Source: an archaeon (GTDB lineage: Archaea; Iainarchaeota; Iainarchaeia; Iainarchaeales; Iainarchaeaceae). From it: 46,783 nt of DNA. Both the position numbers and the translations under genes were made by a program. Under the pieces are notes generated by a model. That model had not been told where the DNA came from, made no database searches, and was given only the letters and a program-made list of their open reading frames with translations. Shown one piece after another: positions 5,271 through 15,413 of this stretch (the first letter of the stretch is position 1; each line of letters starts with the position of its first letter). The stretch spans positions 1 through 46,783 of the forward strand of contig DATDXA010000043.1 in the NCBI GenBank assembly GCA_035289485.1. The letters are read 5' to 3'.

Positions 5271-6098
5271 TTATTTTAGTGCCGGGGATGCTGAAAATTT
5301 CAAGAGCTCCTGATTCAACTCCGGATTTGCGGCACGCAGTGCTAGTTGATATAACTCCAAACGCTCATTTTGGTTCTTTGTAATCTTTAGTATGTTATGA
5401 AACAAGTCATAGGCATTTTTTGCAGGGTTACTACTTTCAGGCAACTCTACAAAATCAAAAGGCACGCTTCCAGAACGCGGGTTTCGTAATACCCCAAACA
5501 TATCATCCCTAGGCGAAAATCCGAGGTTTGCAATTAATGTCATGCCGTGTATTGTGTCTCTGCGCGCCTTTTTGGAGCGCGCATGCATCAGGGCATAGCT
5601 GGAAAGCGAGTTAAGCTTAGATTGTGGGATACCTTTTATCGAGGCTTGAAATTGTTCGCGGTTACGTTCTATTTCCGACACTCTGTCAATTATTTTTGTC
5701 TGGCCCTTTGATGCATCATAAAAAAGCTGCTGCAACATTACCCACTCCCCTTGCTTTGCATTCACTATTCTATCCCCCTCACGGATTTTGTACATGGCTG
5801 TTTTTGGTATGGGGATTTTTGCCTCTACTAATTTGTTAATAAGTTCCTGAATCCTTTTTGCATATGCGTCATCAGAACCGCGGCGAAACCATTTTATCGC
5901 AACCCTCTGCCTTGTGGTTTTTCCGCCTTTTGAAAAAACAACCACTCCTTTGTAAACTGTGACGGAGCCTCCATGTCCGATACTATCTGGATGGCTCTTT
6001 GAACTTGCGACCCTGACAACATCTTGGGCGCCGAGCCATGCGGTTGGTTTCTTCTGTTCCCACCATCGCGGGCGTCTGGGGTTTCCCGGTTTCATCAT
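5271..6098 (-). CDS. hypothetical protein with protein-kinase-like N-lobe
   Basis: IGHGGSVTVYKG glycine loop and RVAIK motif; no clear HRD/DFG. Confidence 0.55.
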   Translation of the reverse strand: MMKPGNPRRPRWWEQKKPTAWLGAQDVVRVASSKSHPDSIGHGGSVTVYKGVVVFSKGGKTTRQRVAIKWFRRGSDDAYAKRIQELINKLVEAKIPIPKTAMYKIREGDRIVNAKQGEWVMLQQLFYDASKGQTKIIDRVSEIERNREQFQASIKGIPQSKLNSLSSYALMHARSKKARRDTIHGMTLIANLGFSPRDDMFGVLRNPRSGSVPFDFVELPESSNPAKNAYDLFHNILKITKNQNERLELYQLALRAANPELNQELLKFSASPALK

Positions 6099-6192: not shown

Positions 6193-6627
6193 TTAGCGCG
6201 CCTGTGCCGCAGCCTGCTCCGTTTCCTCTTCTTCCTCAATCTGCTTCTTTGCTTTAAGCTTGATTAGCACATCCCTCTTTCTCCACTTCTTCTTGCCGCC
6301 AACGCTGCTGGTTTCCACTAAGCCCACATCCACAAGTGTTTTGATGTATGGGTAGAGGCTGCGGTCATTCTTGTAATCCATCCCGAAGATTTCGCGGATC
6401 CTTCTTAGGATTTCTTCCATCGAAATCCACTCATCAAACCCGAGAACCGATGAAATATGCGCGGCCTGAGTGTGCTCATTCATCTTGATATAATCCCAGA
6501 TGCTGTGAATTTCCTCAATTTCCTCTTTTGCGCCGTAAATGCTGTTGTCAATCTTTGCAGTTGGCGATTTATCCTGTGCGCTTGCGCCTCCGGAAAGTAT
6601 TTTTTTGAGAAAATCAAGCAAAAACAT
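6193..6627 (-). CDS. putative winged-helix DNA-binding protein
   Basis: ISMEEILRRI...RSLYPYIKTLVDVGLVET...GGKKKWR resembles a wHTH recognition helix and wing. Confidence 0.65.
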   Translation of the reverse strand: MFLLDFLKKILSGGASAQDKSPTAKIDNSIYGAKEEIEEIHSIWDYIKMNEHTQAAHISSVLGFDEWISMEEILRRIREIFGMDYKNDRSLYPYIKTLVDVGLVETSSVGGKKKWRKRDVLIKLKAKKQIEEEEETEQAAAQAR

Positions 6628-6799: not shown

Positions 6800-7096
6800 A
6801 AGTGAGCCTATTTTAGCGACTAAAAACGCCTAAGTTAGCAATGCGCGGAGCCAGGTGTTTGCAGTGAGTCCATTTTAGCCGACTGTAAATTATCGCATCA
6901 TTAAAGTGGGTGTATTTTAGGGGGCTTTTACGGGTCAAAATTTCGAATGCGTTTTTGTAAGTTGGTTTTAGCGGCCTTTTGGCTGTTTAAGCCAATTTGT
7001 GCATTGCTTTAACCGAATTGAAACAATAGGGCCAGAAAAATAGAGTTGTTTTATTTAGTTAATTACAAATTAACATTAATAAGTGAGCCTATTTTA
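6800..7096. repeat. iteron-like direct repeats in an AT-rich intergenic region
   Basis: AAGTGAGCCTATTTTA exact at 6800-6815 and 7081-7096; variants AGTGAGTCCATTTTAG at 6863 and AAGTGGGTGTATTTTAG at 6904. Confidence 0.65.
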
Positions 7097-7153
7097 CGAT
7101 AGGAAATAAGAAAAAAATAGCGGGGAAAGGATTTGAACCTTTGACCTCCGGGT

Positions 7154-7222
7154 CTCTCAAGCATTCGCCCTTTATTTGTTGTATTTTGCCTTTATTCGCT
7201 TATTTAGCCTGATGGCGGCCTT
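7154..7222 (-). other. canonical 37/38 intron of tRNA-iMet (69 nt)
   Basis: BHB: GGG-CTCA-TAA-AG paired with CT-TGAG-AGA-CCC. Confidence 0.9.
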
Positions 7223-7257
7223 TATGAGCCCGGCGGGCACTCCTGGCTGCCCTACCC

Positions 7258-7302
7258 TAATAGATAAACATCACCTAAAATATTGCCGATGATACGTTTA
7301 TT
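7258..7302 (-). other. non-canonical 4/5 acceptor-stem intron of tRNA-iMet (45 nt)
   Basis: Strict BHB: CC-ATAG-CGA-ATAAAC paired with GTTTAT-CTAT-TAG-GG; cutting CG|A and TA|G restores AGCGGGG. Confidence 0.85.
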
Positions 7303-7304
7303 CG

Positions 7305-7889
7305 CTATGGAGGGAGCGGAGAACCGCTGTAAATCCTATTTATCTTACATGAAATGTGCTTATAATGCTTTATATTGGTCAAAATCCGCAATCTCCAGAT
7401 TTCTCTGGGTGTTTTTGCGTTTTTGAAGCTCCACATTTTTCCGATTGGGATGTGCAAAAGCCCGCATATTTCGGCTATTTTAAGCAAAACACCCTTATCC
7501 TGCTGCGTAACCGTAATATCGCCTTTTACCACGTATCCTTCGGCATCAATAAAACCACTCAAAAAGCCCATTAAATAGTCTTGTGATTTTGAAGTTGCCG
7601 TTTCTAATTTTTGGCTTTTGCTTGCCATTTTTCCATAAAATTCCTTGGAATCGACCCTTAGCCGCAAAGAATCAAATCTTTTGTCCTTTCTTTCTCTTCC
7701 TTTTAACCCGGCTTTTTCTAGTATTTCCTGTAATTTAGCCCTTATATCCCCATCCCGGTCAGAGTTGAGGTAAAACTCAACCCTGTAATGCCTGTCATTT
7801 TTGTTATAATGGGAGTAGCCATCTCCTACAAAAAAACCATCTAGATAGCCTTGATTCAAATCAGATAATTCAAAAACTATTCTATTCAC
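7305..7889 (-). CDS. free-standing LAGLIDADG homing endonuclease (two motifs)
   Basis: YLDGFFVGDG and FLSGFIDAEG; no intein splicing motifs; GTG start; TAG overlaps tRNA nt 1-2. Confidence 0.88.
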   Translation of the reverse strand: MNRIVFELSDLNQGYLDGFFVGDGYSHYNKNDRHYRVEFYLNSDRDGDIRAKLQEILEKAGLKGRERKDKRFDSLRLRVDSKEFYGKMASKSQKLETATSKSQDYLMGFLSGFIDAEGYVVKGDITVTQQDKGVLLKIAEICGLLHIPIGKMWSFKNAKTPREIWRLRILTNIKHYKHISCKINRIYSGSPLPP

Positions 7890-7891
7890 CT

Positions 7892-7900
7892 CTACCCCGC
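7892..7900 (-). repeat. copy of spliced tRNA-iMet nt 2-10 (GCGGGGTAG) upstream of the endonuclease ORF
   Basis: Exact 9-nt match spanning the 4/5 junction, about 25 nt downstream of TATA-like TTTTAAGG (7933-7926). Confidence 0.6.
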
Positions 7901-7976
7901 AGCATGTGTAAACTGGTGGCTATAGCCTTAAAATACAATATTCGAAATTATTAGCTATGTCCAATATTTTGTGTTT

Positions 7977-8528
7977 TTAGAGCATTTTCCGGAGCTCTTC
8001 CATCTCTAATTTGAGGTTTTCTATCTTGTTTCCAAGATCTTTAAGCCTTCTCTTATTATCAACAGCCACAAGGGGCTTTCCCGATTCCGGATCCTTAAAG
8101 TTATACTCCGCGGCTATTTCAAAGGGGAATTCAGCCATTCCCTTGCCCGCGCTAAAGAACTCGTGCGTTCCTTCAAATTCCATGCCTTTTTCAAGCTTAG
8201 TTATGTCCTCGGTATGGGTTTCTATCAGTATTTCGGCAATGCGCGAATTCTTTATCTCCCAAGTATAGGAATACCATCCTGTCTTAGTATTTTTGGTTTT
8301 CTGGTAGCATGCAATCCCGCGGTAGTGGAGCCTATTTAGCACAGTCCTTATTTCAGTCACTTTAAGGGGCAGTTTCTTGCCTATTTCCTCATCAGTTACA
8401 GGCCTTTTTTTGTGCTCGCAGATTTTCATGAGTTCAATTGCATATTCCCCGCCCACGGATTTTAGAAAGTCCTGCACTATCTGCAGTTCATAGATTTTCT
8501 TGACGGGGGTTTTTGGCATACTAATCAT
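7977..8528 (-). CDS. tfe: archaeal transcription factor E (TFE alpha)
   Basis: TDEEIG..L.LKVTEIRTVLNRLH..GI...KTGWYSYTW motif. Confidence 0.9.
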   Translation of the reverse strand: MISMPKTPVKKIYELQIVQDFLKSVGGEYAIELMKICEHKKRPVTDEEIGKKLPLKVTEIRTVLNRLHYRGIACYQKTKNTKTGWYSYTWEIKNSRIAEILIETHTEDITKLEKGMEFEGTHEFFSAGKGMAEFPFEIAAEYNFKDPESGKPLVAVDNKRRLKDLGNKIENLKLEMEELRKML

Positions 8529-8554
8529 TTCCTTTGCGCGCTTGTTTTAAAGCC

Positions 8555-9088
8555 CTATTTTGCCTTCCTAATTTTCTTGCCCTTGTTTACAGGCTCAACC
8601 TCGATTTGGGCTTTTGGAAATTTCTTGGAAAGCTCCTTTCCTTCAAAAATCCTGTCTAGGAATACCGCAAGCGCCGCAATTTCAGAATGCGGCTGAAGCG
8701 TCACAGAGACGTTGTATTCAGATTTTTCATAAACTTCGCGCTCCACTTTTTGCGAGCCGATAATTACAAGAAGCTTCTCTTTTTTGCGCAGCTCCTTTTC
8801 AACGTTCTGCAGCGGCAGCCCATACATTGTAAGGTGAACGCTTGTATATCCATTCTTCGAGTAGTGCTCCAGCCTCTTTTTCCAGCTGTCCACAAACTCT
8901 ATTTCAGCTCCCCTGCCCCATCTCTCATTTATGCTCTCAAGCGTTTGGGGTATGCTCTTGTCTTCTTCCCCTTCAATTTCGATTTTGTCGGCGCCAAATG
9001 CCCTTGCAACAAGGCAGCAGTGGCTTGTGACCCGATAATCGCGAACATGCCGGTGCCCATAACGGAGCACGGCTATCTGTGGAGGCAT
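8555..9088 (-). CDS. trm56: tRNA (cytidine-56-2'-O)-methyltransferase aTrm56
   Basis: VLRYGHRHVRDYRVTSHCCLVARAFGA, VHLTMYG, GSQKV, QPHSEIAALAVFLDR. Confidence 0.92.
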   Translation of the reverse strand: MPPQIAVLRYGHRHVRDYRVTSHCCLVARAFGADKIEIEGEEDKSIPQTLESINERWGRGAEIEFVDSWKKRLEHYSKNGYTSVHLTMYGLPLQNVEKELRKKEKLLVIIGSQKVEREVYEKSEYNVSVTLQPHSEIAALAVFLDRIFEGKELSKKFPKAQIEVEPVNKGKKIRKAK

Positions 9089-14220: not shown

Positions 14221-14370
14221 GGGCCCATAGCTCAGGCTGGTAGAGCACTTGATTCTTTTAAGTTATTTTGCTTAGGGAAGGTGCGGCTCTTAAGGTTGTT
14301 TACCGGCTTGAAAGCTTAGGTAGTGATCGGACAGACCAAGGTGTCGTGGGTTCAAATCCCACTGGGCTCG
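14221..14370 (+). tRNA. tRNA-Lys(CUU) with introns at 30/31 (14252-14285) and 37/38 (14293-14334)
   Basis: Spliced anticodon arm CTTG|G-CTCTTA|A-CCAAG; BHB1 AGAG-CACT-TGA-TTCTT / GGGAA-GGTG-CGG-CTCT; relaxed BHB2; T-rich tail. Confidence 0.9.
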
Positions 14371-14402
14371 CTTTTTTTCTTGTATGATTTTTGCATACTT
14401 GA

Positions 14403-15117: not shown

Positions 15118-15283
15118 GGGGCCGTAGCTCAGCCTGGGAGAGCATCCGACGGATACAAGCGTGCCTTAATGGCTTGTTTTGTCCGGGTGAAGCTGAAGAT
15201 AGAGGCAATGGAGTATCATTGTTTAATCTTCCTTGCTCTCAGCAGTGACCGGTATGTCGCGTGTTCAAATCACGCCGGCCCCA
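15118..15283 (+). tRNA. tRNA-Phe(GAA) with introns at 30/31 (15149-15191) and 37/38 (15199-15247)
   Basis: GGGGCCG/CGGCCCC acceptor stem; spliced arm TCCG|G-CTGAAG|A-CCGGT; BHB1 AG-CATC-CGA-CGGATA / TGTCCG-GGTG-AAG-CT. Confidence 0.9.
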
Positions 15284-15413
15284 CATTTTTCATTTCTTTT
15301 GAAAACTTATGTCCCGCTGTAAGCGGGACGGCCGTATGCGCACCCAACAGACGCAACTGTTGTTTTGCACCCTTTTATATTCATTTTCTTCAAGTATATC
15401 TCTGGTGTTCTTT

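Follow-up and report, generated by a model that had tools for sequence, protein, structure and literature searches.

A split initiator tRNA-Met gene adjoining a homing-endonuclease gene in an archaeon: a probable mobile insertion

Where archaeal tRNA introns at odd positions come from is an open question, and a locus on contig DATDXA010000043.1 (assembly GCA_035289485.1) bears on it: how can an archaeon obtain its initiator tRNA from a gene that is broken after four nucleotides (nt) and whose 5′ end overlaps the stop codon of a LAGLIDADG homing-endonuclease gene? The window, by which we mean the whole stretch of DNA analysed, is 46,783 nt long; all positions are counted on it, and the locus is read on its minus strand. 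The genome it belongs to (labelled G000; other genomes and loci are labelled G### and L###) comprises 1.16 Mb and is 90% complete. We consider it likely, with a probability of roughly 70%, that the locus is the working, and apparently the only, initiator tRNA-Met gene of a small DPANN/Nanoarchaeota-type archaeon, and that this gene carries a composite, probably mobile insertion resembling the collaborative homing of phages. The features on which this reading is built, including the open reading frame (ORF) of the endonuclease and the elements of a bulge-helix-bulge (BHB) fold, are given here in the order in which they are read.

7936-7926 (-): promoter-like A/T box GTATTTTAAGG, 24 nt upstream of the orphan tRNA 5′ end, recognised by eye
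7901-7889 (-): orphan 'far copy' of the tRNA 5′ end, T-GCGGGGTAG-AGG, in which GCGGGGTAG (7900-7892) equals tRNA nt 2-10
7889-7305 (-): LAGLIDADG homing-endonuclease gene, GTG start, 194 amino acids (aa), TAG stop at 7307-7305
7344-7335 (-): second promoter-like box GATAAATAGG, inside the 3′ end of the ORF and exactly 28 nt before A1, recognised by eye
7329-7316 (-): 'near copy' AGCGG with the hairpin AGCGG-TTCT-CCGCT, within the last codons of the ORF (Y-S-G-S-P)
7314-7309 (-): leader strand of the outer BHB helix; CC 7310-7309 pairs with G6 and G7, C 7313-7312 with G10 and G11
7306-7303 (-): exon 1 of the initiator tRNA-Met, AGCG (nt 1-4); A1 and G2 are the last two bases of the TAG of the ORF
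7302-7258 (-): intron 1, AATAAAC...CTATTA, position 4/5, 45 nt, read from the sequence
7257-7223 (-): exon 2, tRNA nt 5-37, GGGTAGGGCAGCC...CTCATA, 35 nt, opening with GGGTAGGG at 7257; remainder of the acceptor strand, D arm, 5′ strand of the anticodon stem and CAT anticodon
7222-7154 (-): intron 2, 69 nt, canonical position 37/38; central helix CTCA/TGAG, bulges TA|A and AG|A; ARAGORN gives i(41,69) on the joined parse
7153-7118 (-): exon 3, tRNA nt 38-73, ACCCGG...CCCCGCTA, 36 nt; 3′ strand of the anticodon stem, variable loop, T arm, CCCCGCT and discriminator A
7117-7111 (-): run of seven T after exon 3, a T-run terminator

An initiator tRNA gene in three pieces

An initial annotation, made from the letters alone, had proposed a 4-nt exon 1 (AGCG), a 45-nt intron and a BHB at these coordinates, and reading the sequence anew gave the same result for each. 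Cleavage was further said to restore AGCGGGG opposite CCCCGCT. Joining the three exons by coordinate with a script yielded a 75-nt tRNA-Met(CAT) that forms a perfect cloverleaf in ARAGORN, with a 7-bp acceptor stem AGCGGGG/CCCCGCT, an A1:U72 pair and GGG:CCC at the base of the anticodon stem. The hallmarks of an initiator tRNA are the CAT anticodon, A1:U72 and three G:C pairs at the bottom of the anticodon stem, and the joined tRNA has all of them. Its exon 2 is 92-100% identical to the initiator genes of relatives.

The fold that defines the first intron is built partly from the leader. Its outer helix joins CC (7310-7309) to GG (7256-7255), and its central helix joins ATAG (7308-7305) to CTAT (7263-7260), so that leader bases -2 and -1 together with A1 and G2 make up one strand; outer-helix leader bases start at -3 and run upstream. 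The 5′ bulge is CGA (7304-7302), the 3′ bulge TAG (7259-7257), and the inner helix pairs ATAAACGT (7301-7294) with ATGTTTAT (7271-7264) over eight pairs, one of them G-U. The core of a BHB is thereby present: two 3-nt bulges on opposite strands with a 4-bp helix between them. Intron 1 itself supplies one base of the 5′ bulge (the third), both strands of the inner helix with their loop, the CTAT strand of the central helix and two bases of the 3′ bulge. BHB geometry with cleavage after the second bulge base is the canonical rule for archaeal introns at 37/38, and the same rule applied to the BHB at 4/5 restores the 75-nt tRNA exactly. The ATAG/CTAT helix, the CGA bulge and the inner helix are also part of the minimum-energy fold of the precursor.

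Upstream of the exons, the ORF ends ...CCT CCA TAG and its stop codon is therefore made up of T(-1), A1 and G2 of the tRNA. That the leader bases of the fold coincide with the last proline codon and the stop of the endonuclease gene had been stated before, and can be read directly from the sequence. Within about ten bases, a coding frame, a stop codon, a predicted splice site and a predicted RNase P site overlap.

Such a gene was also expected to escape tRNA finders, and it does. ARAGORN with default settings called no tRNA at the locus, and Rfam tRNA left it unreported both at the gathering score and at E<=10, with only chance-level matches in 6800-8600 at E<=10. With introns allowed, ARAGORN reported a mis-bounded gene at 7262-7117. 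The same run listed 43 tRNAs in the host genome, many of them disrupted, and called two with a CAT anticodon, namely the locus itself, with wrong bounds, and one on contig 29. The latter (G000 C29:29213-29414, minus strand; called as tRNA-Met with a 114-nt intron) was discarded as a second tRNA-Met; by eye it is a tRNA-Gln(CTG) with acceptor strands AGCCCCG/CGGGGCT and two introns, in the D arm and near the anticodon. Whether the genome holds another initiator gene was a check called for by the initial annotation. ARAGORN with introns, Rfam tRNA, a scan for GGGCTCATA and a T-arm scan found no second one in the 1.16-Mb, 90%-complete assembly. The tRNAs Lys(CTT), Thr(CGT), Leu(TAG) and Ser(GCT) were likewise not found in this genome, whilst tRNA-Ile(TAT) is present on C36; further heavily disrupted tRNA genes may be hidden in G000 or located in the missing 10%. 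Two other disrupted genes lie in the window on the plus strand: an intron-containing tRNA at 14221-14371, which scores only 44.5 bits in Rfam and which ARAGORN calls as an implausible Phe(AAA) with a 56-nt intron, and a tRNA Ala(TGC) at 15118-15284 with an 82-nt intron at an odd position.

The junction of endonuclease gene and intron occurs in identical form in contigs of two other studies, as regards the soundness of the assembly. Most other DNA contigs matching 6900-8100 are initiator genes of other organisms, matched in the exons only. A contig joint from 7256 to 7958, skipping 701 nt from the body of the tRNA to just upstream of the promoter-like box 7936-7926, was considered as an endonuclease-free allele of the strain and dropped, as the match is too short (21 letters on one side) and too loose; it occurs in contigs of runs X3 and X6 and could represent an endonuclease-free relative in the same habitats.

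The host encodes the activities that a gene of this kind would call upon: one EndA splicing endonuclease gene (catalytic domain 94.9 bits), an RtcB ligase (569 bits) and an RNase P RNA (91.6 bits, cut-off 84). The precursor would be transcribed from an upstream promoter, in which case the endonuclease mRNA would double as the 5′ leader of the tRNA, or from the box inside the 3′ end of the ORF. The BHB would require that it contain leader bases -4 to -1 as a minimum, and preferably -9 to -1. EndA would then cut both BHBs, the first of them after G4 and before G5, and RtcB would ligate the exons; the 7-bp acceptor stem would form only upon ligation, whereupon RNase P would trim the leader. Since the acceptor stem is available only after splicing, RNase P probably acts last. 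Splicing before 5′ maturation is also plausible because an RNase P cut at -1/+1 would remove two of the four central-helix pairs and the whole outer helix. This cut would fall inside the stop codon of the endonuclease gene and would take the stop away from any co-transcript. The insertion would accordingly be removed at the RNA level by two unrelated host activities, its endonuclease part by RNase P and its intron by EndA and RtcB.

Two boxes are candidates for the start of such a precursor. Box 7936-7926 is a candidate promoter (P1) for the endonuclease gene together with the tRNA, and box 7344-7335 a candidate internal promoter (P2) for the tRNA. The motif TTAATAAAGG / TTTATTAAAG stands 28-32 nt before A1 in 6 of 13 intronless relatives, and box 7936-7926 resembles it by eye; the spacing of box 7344-7335 agrees with that range, and boxes similar to the latter were seen, again by eye, 28-29 nt before A1 in G165 and L066. 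A regular expression for the motif matched 9 of the 13 relatives (6 at 28-32 nt before A1) and nothing in 7100-8000, which is why both boxes are by-eye calls. WTTATAWA had no match near the locus, and the consensus promoter scanner, being of the sigma-70 type, is not informative for an archaeon.

The position 4/5 intron in related archaea

Relatives show the locus with and without its interruption. Five genomes of the same genus have the same flanking genes (Trm56 and TFIIE-alpha upstream, the same gene downstream) around an uninterrupted initiator gene, with no endonuclease gene and about 520 nt less DNA. When the loci of relatives were fetched with the tRNA region, 13 of 14 started AGCGGGGT... 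without interruption; the remaining one, G031, has a 24-nt insert exactly at 4/5. Intron 2 is absent in 9 of the 13 relatives with an intronless 5′ end, and the other 4 carry unrelated introns at 37/38.

We scanned 196 genomes of the order for 'not G' before GGGTRGGGCAGCC. Ten matched, comprising six introns at 4/5, two A4 variants without an intron and two chance matches in coding DNA. The six are spread patchily over five families. A search of metagenomes for the pattern ATAGCG-gap-CTATNN-RGGTRGRGCAGC returned 30 loci which, with 8 loci found earlier, gave 38 candidates; five of these (L040, L045, L053, L059 and L069) proved not to be tRNAs and were set aside. As a strict test, we asked for a 3′ acceptor strand complementary to AGCG and the next three bases, positioned behind the T loop, as well as a CAT loop. 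Twenty-one distinct loci pass, and the other tRNA candidates end at contig ends or carry more introns.

Across the homologous loci the introns at 4/5 measure 14-45 nt, and ATAG-CGN and CTAT-NN|R are invariant. The inner helix varies around this constant frame: at least 4 pairs abut the bulge in 16 of the 21 strict loci, in 13 different sequences. The outer helix counts 3-7 pairs in homologs, whose leaders make 5-7 pairs with tRNA nt 6-12; three loci show covariation between the leader and tRNA nt 9, with CCCTATC/GGTAGGG in G031 and CCCAC(C/T)/GGTGGG in G119 and G098. The earlier claim of a genuine intron at 4/5, with a BHB that needs leader bases -4 to -1, is therefore upheld by homologs at the same position, by compensatory inner helices and by covariation of the leader with tRNA nt 6-11 in three loci.

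One further claim did not survive the comparison. The tRNA was thought to depend on sequence supplied by the endonuclease gene, which would lock the element in. An intron at 4/5 without an endonuclease gene was found in four of the six order genomes and in 20 of 31 distinct tRNA-like loci, with the leader ..CC ATAG CG kept. The lock-in fails on this count, since the leader has outlasted the endonuclease gene at most loci that bear the intron; a gap between the loci L066 and L043, described below, also points to such a loss. Judged from the sequences, the intron requires this leader in any case and the ORF extends into it, with constraint confined to the last ~10 nt of the ORF, and the gene as a whole is readily lost.

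A GCG(G/A)GG-like near copy of the tRNA 5′ end precedes ATAGCG by 10-25 nt in most loci with the 4/5 intron. We considered that it is kept for pairing with the 3′ acceptor strand and rejected the idea, as positions 5-7 of the GCGGGG are often decayed and, in L067, the copy does not follow the tRNA sequence; the near copy is treated as a relic rather than a functional element. Additional insertions were seen in some loci, with an apparent short extra insert in the anticodon stem of L066 and one in the T loop of L043. Initiator genes of this type can hold three or more introns. In another genome of the order, at L017 (G058:C2, minus strand, ~605-1012), the initiator tRNA gene has a ~410-nt intron at 37/38 holding a 135-aa ORF. 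This ORF contains the stretch GLILYWCEGDK, which is LAGLIDADG-like by eye only; it was dropped as a LAGLIDADG candidate, since Pfam assigned it to no family at E<=0.1 and tblastn did not match it to the endonuclease.

The comparison bears directly on the alternative that the gene is a decaying pseudogene. The insertion would have killed this copy, the BHB would be fortuitous, and a working initiator gene would sit in the unassembled ~10% of the genome. Several observations speak for this and hence against a working gene. At 90% completeness, a second initiator gene could sit in the missing part, and elongator tRNA-Met was also not found in G000 by ARAGORN with introns, which places it beside the other four tRNAs that were missed. 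The fold, too, is unremarkable when taken on its own. Its outer helix is weak, with 2 bp, then two mismatches and then three pairs, T7311 and C7314 being unpaired in this register. Loose BHB motifs are common by chance: a scan of 7100-7960 (861 nt) gave 107, compared with 52 in shuffled sequence, and 9 compared with 2.6 when at least 6 inner-helix pairs were required. The BHB alone is not beyond chance, because 93 of 100 shuffles hold at least one motif of the latter kind. The folding energy of the 201-nt precursor is not unusual against shuffles either (z = -0.14), and the invariance of ATAG/CTAT is partly imposed by the search pattern in the 30 metagenome loci. It also holds, though, in the six order genomes found without that pattern. 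On the sequences compared, the case above chance rests on the exact restoration of the tRNA and on conservation with covariation in homologous loci.

Set against the pseudogene, all exons are intact and give a perfect cloverleaf, and a T-run terminator follows the gene. The same interrupted architecture, with compensatory changes in the inner helix, occurs in 21 strict loci. Moreover, of the 196 genomes of the order, 91 have the 5′ end AGCRRGGTRGRGCAGC in uninterrupted form, and not one of the six with the 4/5 intron is among them. We therefore regard a dead copy as highly unlikely.

The endonuclease gene and the origin of the insertion

The 194-aa protein belongs to Pfam LAGLIDADG_3 (E 6.4e-12) and has two motifs, LDGFFVGDG (with D23) and LSGFIDAEG (with E117), which are invariant in comparison with a 48%-identical homolog in G165. 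Among solved structures its profile matches are weak, to I-AniI (2e-5) and I-DmoI (4e-4). Searching by tblastn with two endonuclease proteins located homologs (35-55% identity) directly upstream in 11 distinct loci with the 4/5 intron, 7 of them full length, 2 cut by contig ends and 2 fragments; the fragments look like decay. An endonuclease ORF that lies outside but adjoins an ORF-less intron recurs in G165, L027, L035, L057, L066 and L067. In G165 and L035 the ORF ends in the same T(-1)AG; the ORFs of L057 and L066 continue across exon 1 to a stop codon within the intron loop.

The link to initiator tRNA genes also emerges when the protein alone is the query. With one genome per species, this search found 11 loci, 9 of which lie immediately upstream of a same-strand CAT initiator tRNA (by eye); the exceptions are L033, beside a CAT tRNA on the opposite strand, and L036, whose fetched flank contains no CAT tRNA. 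Within the order, close homologs occur in two of the 196 genomes (G000 and G165), both at the initiator locus. Seven other, weaker matches in the order (L072-L078, in G005, G031, G047, G125, G187 and G188) lie inside frames of 887-1623 aa; these are probably LAGLIDADG domains of inteins within large host proteins. A small intron within nt 4-15, at 4/5, 10/11 or about 14/15 (by eye), accompanies the endonuclease in 11 of 13 endonuclease-bearing loci. The intron is at 10/11 in L028, L031 and L032 and at about 14/15 in L029 (positions again by eye), with endonuclease homologs upstream; in L028 the parse GGGT-AG|A ... ACCC-AT|A is a strict BHB, and the ORF reads through a 10-nt exon 1.

Between L066 and L057, the ratio of the proportions of nonsynonymous and synonymous differences (pN/pS) is 0.107 (pS 0.44), and the endonuclease of this lineage is thus under purifying selection. 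This would also be expected if the protein had been domesticated as a maturase-like, RNA-binding helper for its own pre-tRNA. Its best match among solved structures is I-AniI, a bifunctional endonuclease and maturase, and the gene is translated from, or next to, an RNA that needs an unusual leader-dependent fold. However, both catalytic acidic residues are conserved, and the intron does not need the endonuclease gene, as most loci with the same intron are without it. BHB splicing is carried out by the EndA protein and is not known to require a maturase. A helper role is accordingly very improbable.

A remnant of the invaded gene may stand at the far end of the insert. Here the orphan copy, which immediately precedes the GTG start codon of the endonuclease ORF, has T rather than A at position 1; neither this copy nor the recurrence of the layout in other archaea had been noted in the initial annotation. 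By eye, an orphan copy precedes the endonuclease gene in 8 of 11 loci (G000, G165, L028, L030, L031, L034, L057 and L066), and in L066 it reaches nt 14 (nt 1-14). The insert measures ~640 nt, and the LAGLIDADG ORF is the only ORF between the repeats.

This layout admits a reading in which exon 1 is the orphan copy itself (7901-7892) and the whole ~640 nt, ORF included, is one giant BHB intron. The identity of GCGGGGTAG (7900-7892) with tRNA nt 2-10, at the ancestral distance from a promoter-like box, would fit, and ORF-containing BHB introns do exist in archaeal rRNA genes (I-DmoI, I-PorI). At every junction that could restore the tRNA (after nt 4 to nt 10), though, the four-base stretches preceding the 5′ and 3′ sites do not complement each other (checked by hand), and the automated BHB scan lists no such pair. 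Orphan position 1 is T, not A, in G000, G165, L028 and L030, and loci without the gene keep the mini-intron and their own ATAGCG. We give the giant intron hardly any credence.

An integrase-type element, of the kind modelled for a Caldiarchaeum tRNA-Thr, would be another way to arrive at the same order of parts. Recombination at the tRNA 5′ end would have left a scar, the intron would derive from the attachment site, and the LAGLIDADG gene would have travelled along as a passenger or come in afterwards. An orphan 5′ fragment, a mobile gene on the same strand and a reconstituted tRNA with an extra intron are indeed what the available part of PMC3293823 describes. Here, in contrast, the ~640-nt insert holds the LAGLIDADG ORF only, with no integrase or recombinase between the repeats, and the neighbouring ORFs scanned (Trm56, TFIIE-alpha and two without a Pfam family) include no integrase or recombinase. 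The endonuclease family is, furthermore, tied to initiator tRNA genes across distant lineages, as a site-specific homing enzyme would be. An integrase scar therefore seems unlikely, if less so than the alternatives above. The two neighbours without a Pfam family lie downstream of the tRNA, at 5271-6098 (minus strand, 275 aa) and 6193-6627 (minus strand, 144 aa); the position of the 144-aa ORF is conserved in the same-genus genomes.

The loss of the endonuclease gene may be caught in one pair of loci. L043 equals L066 minus about 555 nt, with the same promoter and an identical last 60 nt, and the gap is bounded by GCGAGG, which is present in the orphan copy and, as the right-hand repeat, in the near copy close to the 3′ end of the ORF. 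Homing elements pass through a life cycle in which invasion is followed by decay of the endonuclease gene, with the intron left behind, and such a cycle would therefore leave introns without the gene, as in four of the six order genomes and 20 of the 31 loci.

Returning to a composite, mobile insertion, we can suggest, tentatively and at somewhat less than even odds, what the composite is for. It may be a self-propagating cassette for Nanoarchaeota initiator tRNA genes, made up of a leader endonuclease gene, a replacement 5′ end and a target-masking BHB mini-intron. Such a cassette would home into initiator tRNA genes, with an endonuclease that probably recognises their uninterrupted 5′ part (roughly nt 1-20). 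The invaded gene would have left the orphan 5′ copy as its remnant, the cassette would supply a replacement 5′ end of its own, and the mini-intron would shield this new end from the enzyme. Cleavage would then spare the orphan copy, which breaks off at nt 10-14, as well as the rebuilt gene with its split at 4/5, and later loss of the endonuclease gene would leave the intron behind.

Some points count against an insertion of this kind. We infer splicing, the order of processing, and the expression and activity of the endonuclease from the DNA, and the endonuclease target site and its cleavage are putative in the same sense. No RNA run was listed as containing the stretch 7050-8000. No orphan copy was seen before the endonuclease gene in L027, L035 and L067, and where it is present in G000 it has T where A1 is expected. 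Repeat-mediated loss of the gene rests on the one pair L066/L043, whose upstream flank is 78% identical overall. Finally, L030 and L034 carry an endonuclease and have no 5′-proximal intron, so the intron is not strictly needed for immunity.

Relation to known systems

The locus and its relatives present three stages side by side, that is, the uninterrupted gene, the endonuclease gene with the mini-intron, and the mini-intron alone, and this recurring arrangement may show how tRNA introns spread. If the proposed history is true, it would make concrete how tRNA genes can gain non-canonical introns and retain them once the endonuclease gene decays. It would also provide the first archaeal tRNA intron whose mobility is driven by an endonuclease, amounting to collaborative homing in Archaea. 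Full-text searches of the open literature turned up neither a homing-endonuclease gene placed in the leader of a tRNA nor an initiator tRNA with an intron at 4/5.

LAGLIDADG enzymes are encoded inside BHB introns of archaeal rRNA genes, I-DmoI being an example. The present protein resembles that type as a double-motif, monomeric LAGLIDADG enzyme (~194 aa here) tied to an archaeal BHB intron in a gene for a stable RNA. It differs in that the ORF lies in the 5′ leader and not in the intron loop, in that the bulk of the element would be removed by RNase P rather than by splicing, and in that the host gene encodes a tRNA.

That an essential tRNA can escape standard annotation bears on calls of "missing tRNA" in DPANN genomes, which the accessible text of PMC5829648 notes for their undetected disrupted tRNAs. 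Acceptor-stem introns were described as rare in the initial annotation, and this agrees with the available portion of PMC4090602, in which the 3/4 acceptor-stem BHB intron of Thermoproteales tRNAs (Sugahara 2008) is called an extreme case. The two are alike in having a protein-spliced BHB at a non-canonical acceptor-stem site of a tRNA that also has a canonical 37/38 intron. On the account given in that portion, the present intron differs in its position (4/5), its host gene (an initiator tRNA), its occurrence in Nanoarchaeota-type genomes, its leader-built BHB, which allows for a 4-nt exon 1, and its link to an endonuclease.

In Caldiarchaeum subterraneum, the tRNA-Thr(GGU) locus consists of a 5′ tRNA fragment, a 1.8-kb recombinase element and a tRNA with an extra intron at 24/25, according to the part of PMC3293823 at hand. 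Shared with it are the orphan 5′ direct repeat, the same-strand mobile gene upstream, the reconstituted tRNA that gains an intron, and presence or absence among close relatives. The locus studied here is set apart, as far as that text goes, by a ~640-nt insert with a homing endonuclease in place of a recombinase or integrase, by its recurrence at the same tRNA in many lineages and by the leader-dependent intron at 4/5.

The system that our preferred reading resembles is collaborative homing in cyanophage S-PM2, where the free-standing endonuclease F-CphI is encoded beside an intron-containing psbA (Zeng, Bonocora and Shub 2009; as covered in the text available of PMC6083498). In both cases an endonuclease gene lies outside, but adjoins, an intron without an ORF, and the logic proposed in that text is the same, in that the intron splits the target and the enzyme mobilises the intron. 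Whereas psbA has a self-splicing group I intron, the intron here is of the BHB type; the host is a tRNA gene on an archaeal chromosome, and the putatively site-specific LAGLIDADG enzyme is encoded in the 5′ leader, where coding and RNA signals overlap.

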